DNA from: a virus
Direction: 5' to 3' (one strand)
Length of the DNA stretch: 64,000 bases
IMG/VR virus record: IMGVR_UViG_3300023184_004167
Coordinates: 1 to 64,000 of that record
Part shown: in pieces, positions 1 to 30,032 of the stretch
Layout of the letters: each line of letters starts with the position of its first letter
Numbering within the stretch: the first letter of the stretch is position 1
Translations under genes and position numbers: made by a program
The notes under the pieces: model-generated
What the model was told of the DNA's origin: nothing
Seen by the model: only the letters and a program-made list of their open reading frames with translations
The model's database searches: none

Positions 1-830
1 AAGGATTATTTTTATTCCCCTCATATCCAGTAACTTTTGATTACTAATTCTTAATACCGATTAGTTAGACTAATCACTCCTTGAGATATTGGTTACTCTC
101 TTACTACTCCACTCTCTTAAGCCTTGCGAGCTTACTCAGGATTCGACTCCTTAGAGGTTTTTGGTAAAAATACATATTGACTTGGGGTCTTTATGTGCCT
201 CTGACAGCCAGAGACTATGTAGGTACCTGTCACCAACATCTGACGGACACTTTTCCTTGATTGATTAATTTGATTAACTTATTCAAAGTTTTAGTGGTTA
301 GTGGATTGAAAAGGAAGCGGTCCGTCGCCAGCTCAGTTATCTTTTGAACAACCGAATACTAAACTCCCTTATGCAACATCCCTGTCGCCATATTTTTGCT
401 CATCTTCAAAACAAAACCCTTGGTAGAGTTAGGTTAAGGACAACAACAGCACCACCTGTACGATGTCATACCTTTCGGCTTTAAGACAACCTTAATATTG
501 GACTACGTAGTAATGAAGTTGGATAACAACATTTCCCACATAAGTCCTACGGATTATTCTTATTGATGTTCCCATCTCAACCTGACAACCCACATTGCCA
601 AGTAATTTAACCACATCTCCTACAGTGTTACCCTCGGGTACTGAGGTTAAATTATATTCCGCCTGTGTGCTTAAGATTATTACTAATCCGCAACTTACTT
701 AAACCAAGTAAGTCACTTTATCCCGATTTCTCGGTTTATTTGATGACTACACACCGCCAATTATCTTTTATCAGTAAACATCTCAAAATCAACCCGAAGG
801 TCTCATTATCAATATCCTGAATGGATAATA
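1..830 (-). ncRNA. Large structured ncRNA, GOLLD-like; 3' end probably just beyond window start
   Basis: No ORF of 60 aa or more in any frame and GC above the genome background. Dense hairpins on the - strand: ACC-UUCG-GGU (791-802), CCGA-GAAA-UCGG (723-734), ACUUACUU/AAGUAAGU (693-713), GAUUA-GUAA-UAAUC (675-688), GAUG-GGAA-CAUC (565-576), CC-GAAA-GG (471-478), UCGGUUGU/AUAACUGA (333-355), GAUUAG/CUAAUC (59-75), and a long-range GACGGAC/GUCCGUC helix (320-326 with 242-248). Size (~800 nt), phage context and an adjacent tRNA fit GOLLD; the family call is from recollection, not a covariance-model search. Confidence 0.7.
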
Positions 831-836
831 TTTTTA

Positions 837-847
837 TTCAAAGAACT
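837..847 (-). promoter_or_regulatory. boxA-like antitermination site before the large ncRNA
   Basis: AGTTCTTTGAA on the - strand just upstream of the structured RNA; resembles rrn boxA (TGCTCTTTAACA / AGTTCTTTGA). Confidence 0.55.
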
Positions 848-993
848 ATTAAATTTAAAGAAGATGCTGGAATATTTACAACCACCCATTCCCCCCACTT
901 GTAATCACCGATTTTATTTTTAATTTTAAAAATTACTTTCGGTAGGGAAAGAATAATGGAATCTTTACAACCCCATCTTCTTCATTTGTTTCA

Positions 994-1025
994 CAAAGTT
1001 AAGAAGAACTTTTCAATTAATCAAA
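994..1025 (-). promoter_or_regulatory. Bacteroidota sigma-70 promoter (P4)
   Basis: TTTG-N20-TAACTTTG on the - strand, matching the -33/-7 consensus. Confidence 0.85.
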
Positions 1026-1044
1026 TCTTTTTGAAACTTTTTTT

Positions 1045-1129
1045 TTTCGGTTTGATTCACCAGTAGCGACATCACCATACCGCTCTTCCAATCAATTCTT
1101 TTTAGGGAATCTGAAGAATTACCCCGAAA
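1045..1129 (-). ncRNA. Putative ~85 nt multi-stem small RNA downstream of P3
   Basis: Closing stem UUUCGG/CCGAAA with two inner hairpins, AAUUCUU/AAGAAUU and AGCGGUAU-GGUG-AUGUCGCU; starts right after the promoter. Confidence 0.45.
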
Positions 1130-1136
1130 TGTTTCA

Positions 1137-1168
1137 CAAAGTTAAGAAGAATTTTTCATTCAGTCAAA
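1137..1168 (-). promoter_or_regulatory. Bacteroidota sigma-70 promoter (P3)
   Basis: TTTG-N20-TAACTTTG; near-identical ~60 bp context to P4. Confidence 0.85.
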
Positions 1169-1189
1169 TCTTTTTGAAACTTTTTTTTG

Positions 1190-1261
1190 TTTCGGGAGTT
1201 GGATTTGCACCAACGACTAAAAGCTTATGAGACTTTTCTGCTACTACTGCATTATCCCGAA
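1190..1261 (-). tRNA. tRNA-Met (CAT; could be Ile2), no encoded CCA
   Basis: TTCGGGA/TCCCGAA acceptor stem, TGC-AGTAGTA-GCA D arm, AAAGT-CTCATAA-GCTTT anticodon arm, GTTGG-TGCAAAT-CCAAC T arm. Confidence 0.85.
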
Positions 1262-1271
1262 ATATAATATA

Positions 1272-1282
1272 TTTAAAGAACT
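1272..1282 (-). promoter_or_regulatory. boxA-like site before the tRNA
   Basis: AGTTCTTTAAA on the - strand, 10 nt before the tRNA; same motif as 837-847. Confidence 0.5.
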
Positions 1283-1365
1283 AATTTTAAAAGAAGTCCC
1301 ACAAACTTTTAGGTTTTCTCAAACCATTCGTGGGACTCGGTGAGACTCTCATCTCATTTGTTTCA

Positions 1366-1397
1366 CAAAACTAAGAAAAAATTCTCATTTAATCAAA
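1366..1397 (-). promoter_or_regulatory. Bacteroidota sigma-70 promoter (P2)
   Basis: TTTG-N20-TAGTTTTG; third copy of the ~60 bp promoter repeat. Confidence 0.8.
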
Positions 1398-1480
1398 TTT
1401 TTTATGAAACTTTTTGTTTGGGGGATGTTCGTCCTTTCAGACGTAGCTTTATAAATATCCCCATATTCCCCAAACGACTA

Positions 1481-1512
1481 CAAAGATATAAAATATTTTT
1501 TAAAAAGTCAAA
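1481..1512 (-). promoter_or_regulatory. Bacteroidota sigma-70 promoter (P1)
   Basis: TTTG-N20-TATCTTTG. Confidence 0.75.
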
Positions 1513-1547
1513 AAAAATCCTGATAATTTTCATATCAGGACTTTTTT
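1510..1547 (-). terminator. Intrinsic terminator after the T9SS cargo gene
   Basis: TCCTGATA/TATCAGGA inverted repeat flanked by A and T tracts. Confidence 0.6.
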
Positions 1548-1564
1548 CATATTATGTTTTTTAT

Positions 1565-3679
1565 TTATTTCTGAACTAACATTCTAATGGTTTTTCTTGT
1601 ATTACCTATAATATATGTCACAAAATAAATACCATTTTGTAAATTACTATTGGTTATGGTTTTACTAAACACACCCAAATAACTTTGTGTTGTATAATTT
1701 CCAACCAATCTACTATACATATCAAATATTTGAATTTCAACTATTGAATTTTTTTGTGATGATGATTCAACATTTAAACTAAATGTACCATTATTTGGAT
1801 TTGGATATAAATTAACTTGGTCAATGGTTAAGTATTCATTACTCGCACCTCTTTGACCCACAGCACAATTTAAGTGTGTTAATGTTTTAGATACCGCAGC
1901 TCCTAATGCTCCACAAGTTGTTGAACTTTGTACTTTAAGTGCTCCTCCTCTAAACCCCGCATTAAATTGTAATGTTATAACAGAACTATCCATATTTGCA
2001 GATATGATTGTTGTTGATGCCGGTATTGTCCACCTAAATACAGTTATTGGTAATATTACTGAAGCCGCTGGTGATATTACAATGAAATTAACTGAACTTC
2101 CAATACAAGCATTATAGAATCCTGTATTTGAAATAAATGTAATTACTTTTGCCGGTGAGAATGATATTCCCTTTGCGGCTCCAAAATTTCCACAAGCCGA
2201 TTCCCCTTTAGCCGATAATCCCCCACCATTATAACCAGCATCAAAACTTAAATTAATTGAACTACTATCAGCATTTGCAGATATTATTGTTGTAAATGCA
2301 GGTTTAGTCCATCTGAATTTAATTGCGGGTACTTGTGCTATTGTAGGAATAGGATTTGTTAATGTATAATTAACTATTGCCCCAACACAAGGTGTTATTG
2401 TTCCATTTATTGCTGTTGGTGTTGGTGGTGCCGCTCTTGCAAATGCTAATGATGTTGCAGGTATTGAACCTATAGAATTACTTAATGAAACCGTAGCACC
2501 CCCTGAAGATTTTACAATAGTACTTATTGTATTAGTTCCTTGTCCGTTTGTTATGATATTACCAGCCCCACCTAAAACCCAAGCATAATAAACACCACTT
2601 TGATTCGCAACAGTGAATGTTCTAATTGTATCACATGTTTGAGGTTGAATTGAGGTTGTAATAGTAACAGGTGTTGGTAATCCTGTCGGCATTACACAAG
2701 TTCTTGTTATACTATCTGATGGGGGTGTACCCGTACAATTTGCAGGACTTGTTGTATAAGTTCTTATTTGAGTACCATTACTACAACTTGTCCATATTCC
2801 ATAAGTAAATGTACAAGGTAATCTACAAGTTCTTGTTATACTATCTGTTGGTGGTGTACCCGTACAATTTGCTGGACTTGTTGTATATGTTCTTGTTTGA
2901 GTTGTTCCGTTACAAGTTGTCCAACTACCATAAGTAAATGTACAAGGTAAACTACAAGCTCTTGTTATACTATCTGTTGGTGGTGTTCCAGTACATCCTG
3001 CAGGACTTGTTGTATATGTTCTTGTTTGAGTTGTTCCGTTACAAGTTGTCCAACTACCATAAGTAAATGTACACGCTGGTGGTGCAACATATTGATTTGA
3101 TGTTAATGATGTTGTGTAAACAAAATCACCTGTTTCATCACCACTATTATTACCTGCAACCGCTGCAATATAGAATTTAACTCTTGATTGTACCGCAGTT
3201 GGTACAGCTGGTGCAACCCAAGTTAAATTAGAATAAGTGTATGTTGCAGATGCCGTTGATGTTGGAGCATTTGCATGACTTAATTCATAATTACCATTTG
3301 CAATTGTTGGTGTTCCTTTTATGGATGTGTTAGTATTTTGTGTCACCCAAGTTCCAATAACTGCGTGAGTTAAAGTATCTATCGCTTTAATTGATACTCC
3401 CCATATTAATCTGTTTGCCGCAGAGTGAGTGATTTTAATGCTAAAAGGATATGATTGTCCTGCAGTAAATGTTGTAGGTAATCCGATAGCGGTTACACTA
3501 CCACCAGCAGGATTAACAGTTCCACTATGACAACTTGTGCAATTTCTTACTGTTGTACCGTTTAATGATGGTGCCGTTGAATATCCTGTCGGACAATTTG
3601 GATTACTTAAAACGAAAGCCGAACACATAAAAATTAATGTGGTTACAGCAATTAAAATTCTTTTGTTTAGTTTTTTCAT
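1565..3679 (-). CDS. Secreted T9SS type A sorting-domain protein (Reeler/choice-of-anchor V-like N-terminus with CxxCH, 3 TSP1-like repeats, Ig/PKD-like domains)
   Basis: Signal peptide; NCTSCH motif; Reeler-like 'WVAP...VKFYIAAVAGN'; C-terminal 'VNLYPNPNNGTF...GIYFV...RMLVQK', typical of a T9SS CTD. Confidence 0.85.
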   Translation of the reverse strand: MKKLNKRILIAVTTLIFMCSAFVLSNPNCPTGYSTAPSLNGTTVRNCTSCHSGTVNPAGGSVTAIGLPTTFTAGQSYPFSIKITHSAANRLIWGVSIKAIDTLTHAVIGTWVTQNTNTSIKGTPTIANGNYELSHANAPTSTASATYTYSNLTWVAPAVPTAVQSRVKFYIAAVAGNNSGDETGDFVYTTSLTSNQYVAPPACTFTYGSWTTCNGTTQTRTYTTSPAGCTGTPPTDSITRACSLPCTFTYGSWTTCNGTTQTRTYTTSPANCTGTPPTDSITRTCRLPCTFTYGIWTSCSNGTQIRTYTTSPANCTGTPPSDSITRTCVMPTGLPTPVTITTSIQPQTCDTIRTFTVANQSGVYYAWVLGGAGNIITNGQGTNTISTIVKSSGGATVSLSNSIGSIPATSLAFARAAPPTPTAINGTITPCVGAIVNYTLTNPIPTIAQVPAIKFRWTKPAFTTIISANADSSSINLSFDAGYNGGGLSAKGESACGNFGAAKGISFSPAKVITFISNTGFYNACIGSSVNFIVISPAASVILPITVFRWTIPASTTIISANMDSSVITLQFNAGFRGGALKVQSSTTCGALGAAVSKTLTHLNCAVGQRGASNEYLTIDQVNLYPNPNNGTFSLNVESSSQKNSIVEIQIFDMYSRLVGNYTTQSYLGVFSKTITNSNLQNGIYFVTYIIGNTRKTIRMLVQK
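2696..3073 (-). repeat. Three tandem 129 bp (43 aa) Cys/Trp repeats, thrombospondin-like
   Basis: CTFTYGSWTTCNGTTQTRTYTTSPAxCTGTPPxDSITRxC three times, near-identical at DNA level. Confidence 0.9.
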
Positions 3680-29231: not shown

Positions 29232-30032
29232 TTATAGATAGTCAAACAGAACACTTGACTCGTTCCTTAACTTTCTCAATGCTTTTTCTTTAATCTGACG
29301 AACTCTTTCCTTTGTTAAATCAAAATCATTTCCGATATCTTCAAGAGTTCTTTGTCCACCTGATAACCCAAAATAATCCTCAATTATAACTTTCTCCCTT
29401 TCATCCAAAACATCAAGGATTGATATTAATTTTTCTCTTAATGTCTCTTCTGTTGAGAATCCTGCTTCAGGTTTATCAGCATTTTTATTCTCTAAAACAT
29501 CCAATAGTGTATCACCATCTTCATTCAATGGGTTATCCAAATTTACGGTATAAGGTAATGTTACAAATTTGTCAGGCATATCTAACCCTGTAATATCTTG
29601 GGATTTTTTTGCCTTCTGAAGTTCCTGAACAACATTAACAGGAAATCTAATGGTACGAGAATTCTCATTCAAAGATTGTAAAATTGCTTGTCTAACCCAC
29701 CAAACAGCATAAGATATAAATCTTAAGTTCTTAGTCCAATCAAACGTCTCAATAGCCCTTAATAACCCGTAATTCCCTTCAGCAATTAAATCAGATAAAT
29801 CTAACCCCTGATTTTGATATTGTTTACTTACAGTAATCACAAACCTTAAATTACCTTCAAGAATTTCTTTTTTAATTTCCGCCCTTTGTTTTTCATCCAT
29901 CCTACCTGATAACATTTGTACTGCCAACTCCTTTTCTCTTGCCGGAGTCATAACTTTAAGTTTCCTGATGTCTTTCAAGTAAGAAGAAATCTCTTCTTGA
30001 TTAATTGCAATTGTCTGATTTTTATCTTTCAT
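29232..30032 (-). CDS. RNA polymerase sigma-70 factor (Bacteroidota RpoD-like)
   Basis: 'NLRFVITVSKQYQNQGL.LSDLI.EGN.GL', 'FISYAVWWVRQAILQ', region 4 'TLEDIG..F.LTKERVRQIKEKALRKLR'. Confidence 0.95.
   Translation of the reverse strand: MKDKNQTIAINQEEISSYLKDIRKLKVMTPAREKELAVQMLSGRMDEKQRAEIKKEILEGNLRFVITVSKQYQNQGLDLSDLIAEGNYGLLRAIETFDWTKNLRFISYAVWWVRQAILQSLNENSRTIRFPVNVVQELQKAKKSQDITGLDMPDKFVTLPYTVNLDNPLNEDGDTLLDVLENKNADKPEAGFSTEETLREKLISILDVLDEREKVIIEDYFGLSGGQRTLEDIGNDFDLTKERVRQIKEKALRKLRNESSVLFDYL

Follow-up and report, generated by a model that had tools for sequence, protein, structure and literature searches.

Ribosomal RNA (rRNA) operons (rrn) of Escherichia coli are controlled by tandem promoters with upstream (UP) elements, by a leader with the order boxB-boxA(-boxC), and by a Nus antitermination complex. 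Among phages, partial parallels are offered by the tandem strong host-type early promoters A1-A3 of the coliphage T7, by the nut sites of lambda (boxA-boxB, acting with N protein) and the put RNAs of HK022, which are cis RNA signals near promoters that give rise to termination-resistant polymerase, and by the transfer RNA (tRNA) cluster of T4, which includes two stable tRNA-like RNAs of unknown function. Here we examine a 138,365-nucleotide (nt) virus record from IMG/VR (IMGVR_UViG_3300023184_004167; linear, 46% complete according to CheckV, 31.6% G+C), the first 64 kilobases (kb) of which are hereafter called the window. On the minus strand, between positions 1,512 and 837, four promoter motifs, two boxA-like words and a tRNA-Met gene precede a GOLLD RNA. 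We believe, with a probability of about 0.7, that this arrangement is best explained as an rRNA-like unit that makes use of stacked promoters and boxA, and the sequences suggest that the phage has copied, element for element, the rRNA control region of its likely Bacteroidota host.

GOLLD RNAs form 14-mer cages, are encoded close to tRNA islands by phages and prophages and have no known function, and one representative, env-38, is located downstream of a Met-tRNA (PMC12286853). In the portions of that report considered here, transcription of GOLLD is not addressed, and the sole promoter mentioned is the T7 promoter in the methods. The RNA in our window is likewise phage-borne and resides beside a tRNA-Met. 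It spans positions 829 to 1 (minus strand) and is composed of a 5' variable domain and a 3' conserved domain (371-1), the latter matching the Rfam model RF02032 at 371..1 with 251.8 bits (gathering score 150) over positions 1-381 of the 416 in the model. Its 3' end is missing because the contig starts there, and its 5' boundary was placed at 829 by the onset of conservation among loci. The promoter array, boxA and modules described below are additions to the existing picture of GOLLD; in literature searches that placed subscription papers on Bacteroides rRNA promoters outside their scope, no description of the GOLLD promoter array and boxA arrangement was found.

An initial annotation, made from the sequence of the window, had proposed four TTTG-N20-TAnnTTTG promoters, three of them in a conserved repeat with an upstream A-tract and a downstream TGAAACA. 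All four motifs are exact and lie on the minus strand: P1 (TTTG-N20-TATCTTTG, 1481-1512), P2 (TTTG-N20-TAGTTTTG, 1366-1397), P3 (TTTG-N20-TAACTTTG, 1137-1168) and P4 (TTTG-N20-TAACTTTG, 994-1025). Each carries the -7 box TAnnTTTG and, at N20, the -33 TTTG that Bacteroidota sigma-A promoters have 19-21 nt upstream of this box. TAnnTTTG, spanning -12 to -5, is the consensus -7 box for Bacteroidota sigma-A in the part of the source that was used (PMC9723704). On this basis, transcription is predicted to start near 1476, 1361, 1132 and 989, which would place the -7 box at -12 to -5. P2, P3 and P4 reside in copies of a 69-nt repeat (1354-1422, 1125-1193 and 982-1050) with 80-83% identity (83% for 1125-1193 and 80% for 1354-1422), and every copy includes the A-tract and TGAAACA. 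The -33 TTTG of P1 comes from the T-run of the terminator of the upstream gene, and relatives have a -7 box located 9-10 nt further downstream than that of P1. In the window, 8 matches to TTTG-N20-TAnnTTTG were found versus a shuffle mean of 0.86 (maximum 3), and 0 of 100 dinucleotide shuffles reach 8. The whole record has 8 motifs with N20 and 18 with N19-21, and four of its strict motifs are crowded into the 532 nt of the array.

These motifs might not be read by host sigma-A. A gene at 29232-30032 (minus strand) codes for a 266-amino-acid (aa) RpoD/RpoS-like protein of the sigma-70 family with regions 2 and 4, whose best matches are RpoS and RpoD models at about 180 bits, under the model cut-offs. 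If this factor, rather than host sigma-A, reads the array, the unit would be phage-timed, perhaps for middle or late expression. The presence of 18 strict host-type motifs in 138 kb does mean that most phage genes must use something else. However, the array motifs equal the host sigma-A consensus as given in the portion of PMC9723704 that we consulted, the upstream elements are the same as at host rrn promoters, and nothing ties the phage factor to the motif. We therefore regard reading by the phage factor as improbable.

The initial annotation had also placed boxA before a tRNA-Met and before a giant RNA, and both sites exist. The first, GTTCTTTAAA (1272-1281, minus strand), is situated 10 nt before tRNA-Met (1261-1189; anticodon CAT, CCA not encoded; identified by ARAGORN and by the Rfam tRNA model with 57.3 bits), and its placement is the same in relatives. 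The second, GTTCTTTGAA (837-846, minus strand), is separated by about 8 nt from the conserved ATTATCC at the start of the giant RNA, which is GOLLD. The word GTTCTTTRAA occurs in the 64 kb at 1281-1272 and 846-837 only. Between the promoters are the modules that we call S1 (behind P1) and S3 (behind P3), and a leader hairpin called S4 follows P4.

A scan of viral contigs with a GOLLD word returned at least 119 stretches, 80 of which had 2-kb flanks. The 75 loci, including the window, with at least 1500 nt upstream were reduced to 54 distinct sequences and then, by grouping at 90% identity or more, to 36 clusters. Representatives of these 36 clusters carry, within 800 nt upstream of GOLLD, 53 strict promoter motifs in the sense orientation versus 2 in the opposite orientation, with 0 inside GOLLD itself. 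Cassettes of the kind the initial annotation suggested comparing among related phages are indeed found there: 23 of the 36 non-redundant loci carry one to four motifs (one in 7, two in 7, three in 4 and four in 5, with none in 13), and the 82 distinct inter-promoter segments of all loci form 30 families. The spacing within phage arrays is N20 in 138 of 170 promoters and N19 in 31 of 170. Within clusters sharing 90% identity over 1 kb, members can differ in motif number, and promoter copy number thus changes quickly. Of 73 listed loci (rows not de-duplicated), 9 have a tRNA-Met within the array and 15 have one immediately behind GOLLD. A search of annotated phages matched one unannotated 634-kb record, through its GOLLD part alone.

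The boxA-like word is also widely shared: GTTCTTT[GA]A adjoins the 5' end of GOLLD in 33 of the 36 representatives (46 sense occurrences versus 1 antisense). Twenty-nine canonical leaders consist of the -7 box, TAAAACAAA, a 5-base-pair (bp) hairpin, an invariant GTTCTTTGA, about 10 nt, and then GOLLD. Their hairpin is 99.2% paired and shows both-sided changes at 4 of 5 pairs, whereas slid controls pair at 18-64%.

Could the repeats simply be inert debris left by tandem duplication or recombination, with motif matches that have no function? Copy number does differ among close relatives, and one copy in the window has decayed. However, the four boxes are exact and all have N20, arrays recur in loci that share about 70% identity, the motifs are biased 53 to 2 towards one strand, and the same design is present in host rrn operons. 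We consider this explanation to be highly improbable.

The phage codes for proteins with Por_Secre_tail and SprB-repeat domains, which suggest a Bacteroidota host. For comparison, bacterial genomes were scanned with a published Bacteroidota 16S probe to obtain 61 loci in which at least 300 nt precede the 27F site; a few of these records are labelled as non-Bacteroidota (L252 'Eubacteriales', L304 'Sulfurimonas') and may be mis-binned. The 61 rRNA leaders carry 66 strict promoters in the sense orientation versus 1 antisense, where shuffles give 0.46. Two or more promoters are present in 16 of the 61 and three to five in five of them (L284, L264, L252, L289 and L291), in which the tandem sigma-A promoters are spaced about 90-130 nt apart. 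Median promoter spacing is 125 nt in host leaders and 138.5 nt in phage loci. The word GTTC[TA]TTGA is found in 30 of the 61 leaders (34 sense, 0 antisense), with 28 of the 34 located at -91 to -136, and it often runs on to GTTCTTTGAAAATATTGAA. Every promoter in the host leaders that were inspected shows an upstream element of the A-tract/CTTCAAAAAAG type, and downstream of the promoter come a short hairpin and a boxA-like GTTCTT. Host rrn and phage promoters share a similar upstream consensus, and the UP/-33 segment of the window, AAAAAAGTTTCAAAAAGATTTG, matches host rrn promoters at 17 of 17, 21 of 23 and 20 of 22 positions. Literature searches of the same scope as above found no description of such arrays of three to five tandem promoters with boxA-like words in Bacteroidota rRNA operons.

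Thus, the phage locus resembles bacterial rRNA operon control in its tandem co-directional promoters 90-200 nt apart with A-tract upstream elements, and it resembles Bacteroidota rRNA leaders in having a hairpin followed by the boxA word GTTC(T/A)TTGA and no internal terminators. As with rRNA operons, the products are a long untranslated structured RNA and a tRNA. In contrast to rRNA operons, the phage payload is GOLLD rather than rRNA, and S1 and S3 modules lie between promoters. Moreover, boxA precedes the phage payload by about 8-25 nt versus about 90-135 nt before host 16S, and the -7 box is followed by TGAAACA in the phage versus GCACCCGC in host rrn. The rrn-like interpretation of the initial annotation is therefore well supported by the motifs, boxA and recurrence, which match Bacteroidota rRNA leaders, although one of its hairpins, that of unit 2, appears to be a decayed promoter.

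Evidence on whether the units form one transcript comes from a terminator scan and from RNA contigs. The scan found no terminator on the sense strand inside the array, and in L364, the closest relative with a complete GOLLD, the sole terminator is located directly behind GOLLD (3410-3429 followed by T8). With no terminator between units, polymerases from all promoters should enter tRNA-Met and GOLLD. The RNA data are contigs from four lake metatranscriptome runs (X16, X19, X20 and X21) of four studies, compared over positions 1-1700. They cover parts of 1-666, plus 780-816 in two runs, with a summed depth of about 10-730 per bin, and most of 856-1700 is without contig cover, which is uninformative either way. 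One X16 contig (222 nt, depth 2.8, an L364-like variant) extends from the tRNA 3' end across P3, S3 and P4 (980-1188) and, if it derives from RNA, represents read-through of the inner promoters. Contigs from X16 and X21 join 635 to 780 and omit 144 nt of the GOLLD 5' domain, presumably because they come from a relative with a shorter variable region.

Unit 2, which begins at P2, holds two hairpins ahead of tRNA-Met. A small one, TGAGA-TGAGAG-TCTCA (1341-1356, minus strand), was recognized by folding and occupies the position of the canonical GOLLD-leader hairpin; it belonged to the search pattern for P2 leaders, and its conservation among the resulting loci is biased accordingly. The second (1338-1293, minus strand) is formed by the inverted repeat GAGTCCCAC / GTGGGACTTC, folds at -22.7 kcal/mol (z -5.6) and is followed by TTTT. 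The whole segment before the tRNA folds at -28.7 kcal/mol (z -4.7, 0 of 200 shuffles as good). The P2-leader-word scan yielded 46 loci, 29 of them distinct with the window included, and 21 of these 29 have a full TTTG-N20-TAnnTTTG in place of the second hairpin. In the loci inspected, this intact promoter sits between the stem halves GTCCCAC and GTGGGAC. The window retains the -33 TTTG inside the inverted repeat, but the spacer is shortened and the -7 box is broken: about 10 nt of spacer and the -7 box have been lost from both the window and L364, the latter preserving the stem through two compensatory changes (ACCCCAC/GTGGGGT). Because relatives hold a full promoter where the window and L364 have lost these parts, we conclude from the sequence comparison that the hairpin is a fifth promoter that has decayed inside its inverted repeat. 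Of the P2-leader loci checked with Rfam, 9 of 10 contain GOLLD (L360 ends before it), and the checked loci carry a tRNA but no further known RNA family within the array.

The same hairpin with its U-tract could instead be an attenuator or terminator, such that P1 and P2 would form a short separate unit and tRNA-Met and GOLLD would depend mainly on P3, P4 and regulated read-through. The strength of the fold and the TTCTTTT that follows would fit this proposal, as would relatives, also without the inner promoter, that have TTTTTT or TTTATTTT past the stem. However, just four U residues follow the stem in the window, loci with an intact inner promoter have a less T-rich tail, and such an arrangement would leave tRNA-Met without a promoter of its own. 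The loop of the hairpin is longer than a simple terminator scan allows, which is why that scan passed over it. We judge regulated termination at this site to be quite unlikely and favour the decayed promoter within a read-through unit.

Inverted repeats are not confined to this relic. Short ones bracket the promoters at 1354-1422, 1125-1193 and 982-1050 and those of relatives, and they covary between lineages (GTTTCA/TGAAAC, GTCCCA/TGGGAC, ATGTCCCA/TGGGACAT, ATGTCTCA/TGAGACAT, GTTTA/TAAAC and GTTTAA/TTAAAC). Flanking helices of at least 6 bp are present in 38% of 82 internal promoter contexts versus 9% of mismatched partners, and these repeats fold weakly (z -1.2 to -2.7). The idea that the helices are relevant only in read-through RNA was not supported, since they are equally common (37%) at 78 'first' promoters.

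The tRNA gene itself varies among relatives. The window tRNA-Met is A+U-rich with a paired first base, whereas those of several relatives (L365, L360 and L384 were compared) combine a C1xA72 mismatch with an anticodon stem containing GGG/CCC, features that we take to be initiator hallmarks, and L364 carries a third type. These differences indicate that the tRNA cassette has been swapped between close relatives.

The module behind P1, S1 (1415-1476, minus strand), was defined from an alignment of 28 distinct sequences. It consists of ATATTTAT (1458-1451), which is invariant across the 28, a 5-bp hairpin with a GAAA loop (1443-1430), and ACATCCCCC (1428-1420). The helix, whose loop is mostly GAAA (GNRA type), is 94.4% paired in these sequences with both-sided changes at 4 of 5 pairs, versus 21-40% pairing in slid controls. 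The window S1 folds at -18.4 kcal/mol (z -2.2), with 7 of 200 shuffles as good. S1 is present in 21 of 23 distinct upstream regions from the P2-leader scan, and additional copies came from a scan with the UP/-33 repeat word. That second scan is unspecific, in that at least 118 loci were returned, mostly lone chance matches, and the 13 that hold S1 were placed by BLAST coordinates, with the S1 regular expression matching none of the 13. An outer stem is not supported, being 48.5% paired (hand-drawn and one column off register), and RNAalifold reported no consensus structure for 21 S1 sequences. Eight loci (L074, L072, L024, L040, L013, L098, L111 and L044) carry a payload of about 190 nt in the interval from S1/P2 to the following promoter, about 170-385 nt past the S1 match. 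Its sequence begins with ATTACACCCGCTGG, and ahead of it are a hairpin, a T-run and a boxA-like word. Rfam gives no match to this payload with E up to 0.01 in L074, L024, L040 and L013; GOLLD is downstream in the first three of these, and a tRNA is present in all four.

S3 (1045-1129, minus strand) is an 85-nt module closed by TTTCGG/CCGAAA. It folds at -19.6 kcal/mol (z -0.9; 35 of 200 shuffles as good), which is not better than chance, and its only two sequence variants offer no covariation. S3 is identical to that of L364 at 86 of 86 positions, versus 72-75% identity for GOLLD, 66% for tRNA-Met and 69% for S1, which makes the array a mosaic. The larger block P3-S3-P4-S4 (826-1188) matches L364 with 92-100% identity, compared to 54-81% for GOLLD, the tRNA and the upstream parts, a pattern that points to recent exchange or very strong constraint. 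In other lineages, different stem-closed modules occupy the S3 position, and one of these shows G-U, A-U and G-C as its closing pair when compared by eye. No Rfam match to S3 was found with E up to 10, and neither Rfam at that threshold nor ARAGORN recognized a tRNA at 1045-1136. A coding function was rejected, because the tail of its 21-codon frame shifts with A-run length in L364.

A 47-nt core of S3 (1109-1063) matches (46 of 48 identical) the insert of a 112-113-nt tRNA-like gene found in lake phage contigs (L418:1450-1561, plus strand; L416:1465-1577, minus strand; also L417, L420 and L422-L425). This gene is nearly identical throughout its 3 viral and 5 metagenome loci, which represent at least four flanking contexts, one of which places it directly after a tRNA-Leu(TAA). 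Against the Rfam tRNA model it reaches 45.7 and 39 bits, with 44 inserted nt assigned to the anticodon loop, and ARAGORN makes no call on it. The insert pairs with the anticodon region (CUUCC/GGAAG), resembling intron-bearing pre-tRNAs. The acceptor, D and T arms of the gene are missing from S3. Judged by sequence, the S3 core is derived from, or common to, the insert of this gene.

S4 (857-983, minus strand) is a 127-nt irregular hairpin, defined by fold and repeat search, in the boxB position; that is, it stands where canonical leaders have the small hairpin. It contains two copies of GGTTGTAAA(G/T)ATTCC and folds at -36.2 kcal/mol (z -3.0, 0 of 200 shuffles as good). A consensus of the window and two relatives has 42 pairs, 7 of which show both-sided compensatory changes. 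The initial annotation had assigned a folded RNA to each promoter, of which that of S3 is not unusually stable. It had also named inter-promoter hairpins unconserved among relatives as part of the grounds for rejecting the proposal, and S1 and S4 depart from that description, with compensatory changes in both. Elsewhere in the array, an Rfam scan with E up to 10 returned noise only (Hatchet, HACA snoRNA, Thr leader).

Do these modules represent separate small RNAs (sRNAs), with S1, the P2 hairpin RNA and S3 each processed or terminated apart from GOLLD and having functions of their own? The case is strongest for S1, which stands first in 28 distinct sequences, where its hairpin covaries and its unpaired motifs are invariant, and it overlaps with the rrn-like explanation. 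Each candidate would have its own promoter motif, with P1 before S1 and P3 before S3. Several of the 30 segment families recur widely, are stem-closed and by eye show compensatory changes, the S3 sequence is perfectly preserved between phages whose GOLLD RNAs are not, its core also occurs inside the tRNA-like gene, and lineages that lack the inner promoter have a T-run after the unit-2 hairpin that resembles an sRNA end. However, the terminator scan finds nothing but A-runs after S1 or S3, the S3 fold is no better than that of shuffles, the S1 outer stem is not supported, and RNAalifold gives no S1 consensus. Furthermore, host rrn arrays have similar spacers, and nobody treats those as genes. 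As a whole, separate sRNAs are possible, though we lean against them: of the several possible sRNAs in the initial annotation, S1 retains a conserved, covarying hairpin, whereas the S3 core is derived from, or common to, the insert of the tRNA-like gene and the unit-2 hairpin traces to a dead promoter. A more elaborate, and rather unlikely, version is a recombining 'RNA cassette island' in which each promoter unit makes a different stable small RNA that works with GOLLD as cage cargo, assembly cofactor or anti-defence decoy. Candidates would be the S1 family, the 47-nt S3 core, and the payloads of about 190 nt and 150 nt, led by boxA, in relatives. The payload of about 150 nt is an RNA-like segment closed by GGTTAC/GTAACC in L197 (-1000 to -830 from the GOLLD word) and four variants; in L197 it has its own promoter, small hairpin and GTTCTTTGAA leader, like tRNA-Met and GOLLD.

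The phage systems introduced above each share a part of this design. As with T7 A1-A3, a row of host-type promoters heads a phage transcription unit, but compared to coliphage promoter rows the phylum, promoter type and RNA are different, and boxA in the window precedes payloads rather than following every promoter. As in T4, small structured RNAs would be co-transcribed with phage tRNAs and S3 is related to a tRNA-like gene; unlike T4, which has no promoter per unit, the S3 unit has a promoter motif, and S3 lacks tRNA arms. S1 is positioned directly behind P1, as are lambda nut and HK022 put sites behind their promoters, and it could act in cis in the manner of put, modifying polymerase at the first promoter. 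Unlike lambda nut, the window has a hairpin followed by boxA, which is the rrn order, and no N-like protein was identified.

On the rrn-like explanation, the stretch would be the control region of a non-coding operon in a large lake phage that imitates host rRNA operons. Four co-directional sigma-A-type promoters with A-tract/GTTTCAAAAAG upstream elements would feed one read-through transcript, in which a hairpin and the host-type boxA GTTCTTT(G/A)AA stand ahead of each payload, first tRNA-Met and then GOLLD. By analogy with rrn leaders, the boxA RNA would recruit the host Nus complex, a role taken from boxA function in studied bacteria, and polymerase would then resist Rho and pausing over about 0.85 kb of untranslated, structured GOLLD RNA. 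Nus action is plausible because an untranslated RNA of this length is a natural Rho target. The promoters would sum to an rRNA-like output, and tRNA-processing enzymes would cut out tRNA-Met. Promoter use, the sigma factor that reads the array, Nus action and processing are all inferred. The inter-promoter segments would be modules of a shuffling cassette array, with S1 as a conserved 5' leader element, the unit-2 hairpin as a dead promoter, S3 as a fragment or free copy of the insert of the tRNA-like gene, and S4 as an expanded leader hairpin.

Several observations weigh against this explanation. Two GTTCTTTRAA words per 64 kb are not above chance (23 of 100 shuffles give at least two), and the case for boxA rests on placement and comparison, not frequency. 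The exact boxA 9-mer is absent from 31 of the 61 host leaders, where variants were seen but are uncounted, and no boxC-like element is evident in the canonical-leader alignment, although no search aimed at boxC was made. Strict promoter motifs are lacking in 13 of the 36 GOLLD loci, and 'host-type' promoters need not be 'host-read' because the phage codes for an RpoD/RpoS-like sigma factor. The relic hairpin and its TTTT could stop some P1 and P2 transcripts ahead of boxA. Finally, the RNA runs consist of contigs only, from which no start, 3' end or strand can be read, and the X16 contig that bridges the inner promoters is thin and may reflect DNA carry-over in the library.

The surroundings of the array can be described briefly. 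On the minus strand over positions 1-3000, the end of a gene for a 704-aa protein with a type IX secretion system (T9SS) tail (1565-3679; Por_Secre_tail match) is followed by its intrinsic terminator (1549-1509; a 17-pair stem and T-run) and then by the four promoter motifs. Genes for tmRNA (RF00023) are located about 1-1.5 kb from GOLLD in two relatives (L150:3046-3438, minus strand, 98.6 bits; L197:383-769, plus strand, 65.3 bits). Searches of 4 named-locus genomes and of 101 sampled Bacteroidia genomes returned no GOLLD; they pointed to no host through a prophage, and they do not demonstrate absence.

In the portion of the literature that we draw on, GOLLD is an RNA-only cage of 14 subunits (PMC12286853). 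If the rrn-like explanation is true, GOLLD probably has to be made at very high levels and guarded from Rho, which constrains ideas about its role, and the control region would provide a concrete route for expressing GOLLD in Bacteroidota. It would also mean that phage hijacking of boxA and Nus reaches past the lambda-type model, into another phylum, and can serve a non-coding payload. The side results, namely the host arrays of three to five promoters, S1, and the 44-47-nt insert of the tRNA-like gene, raise small, testable questions about phage RNA islands.

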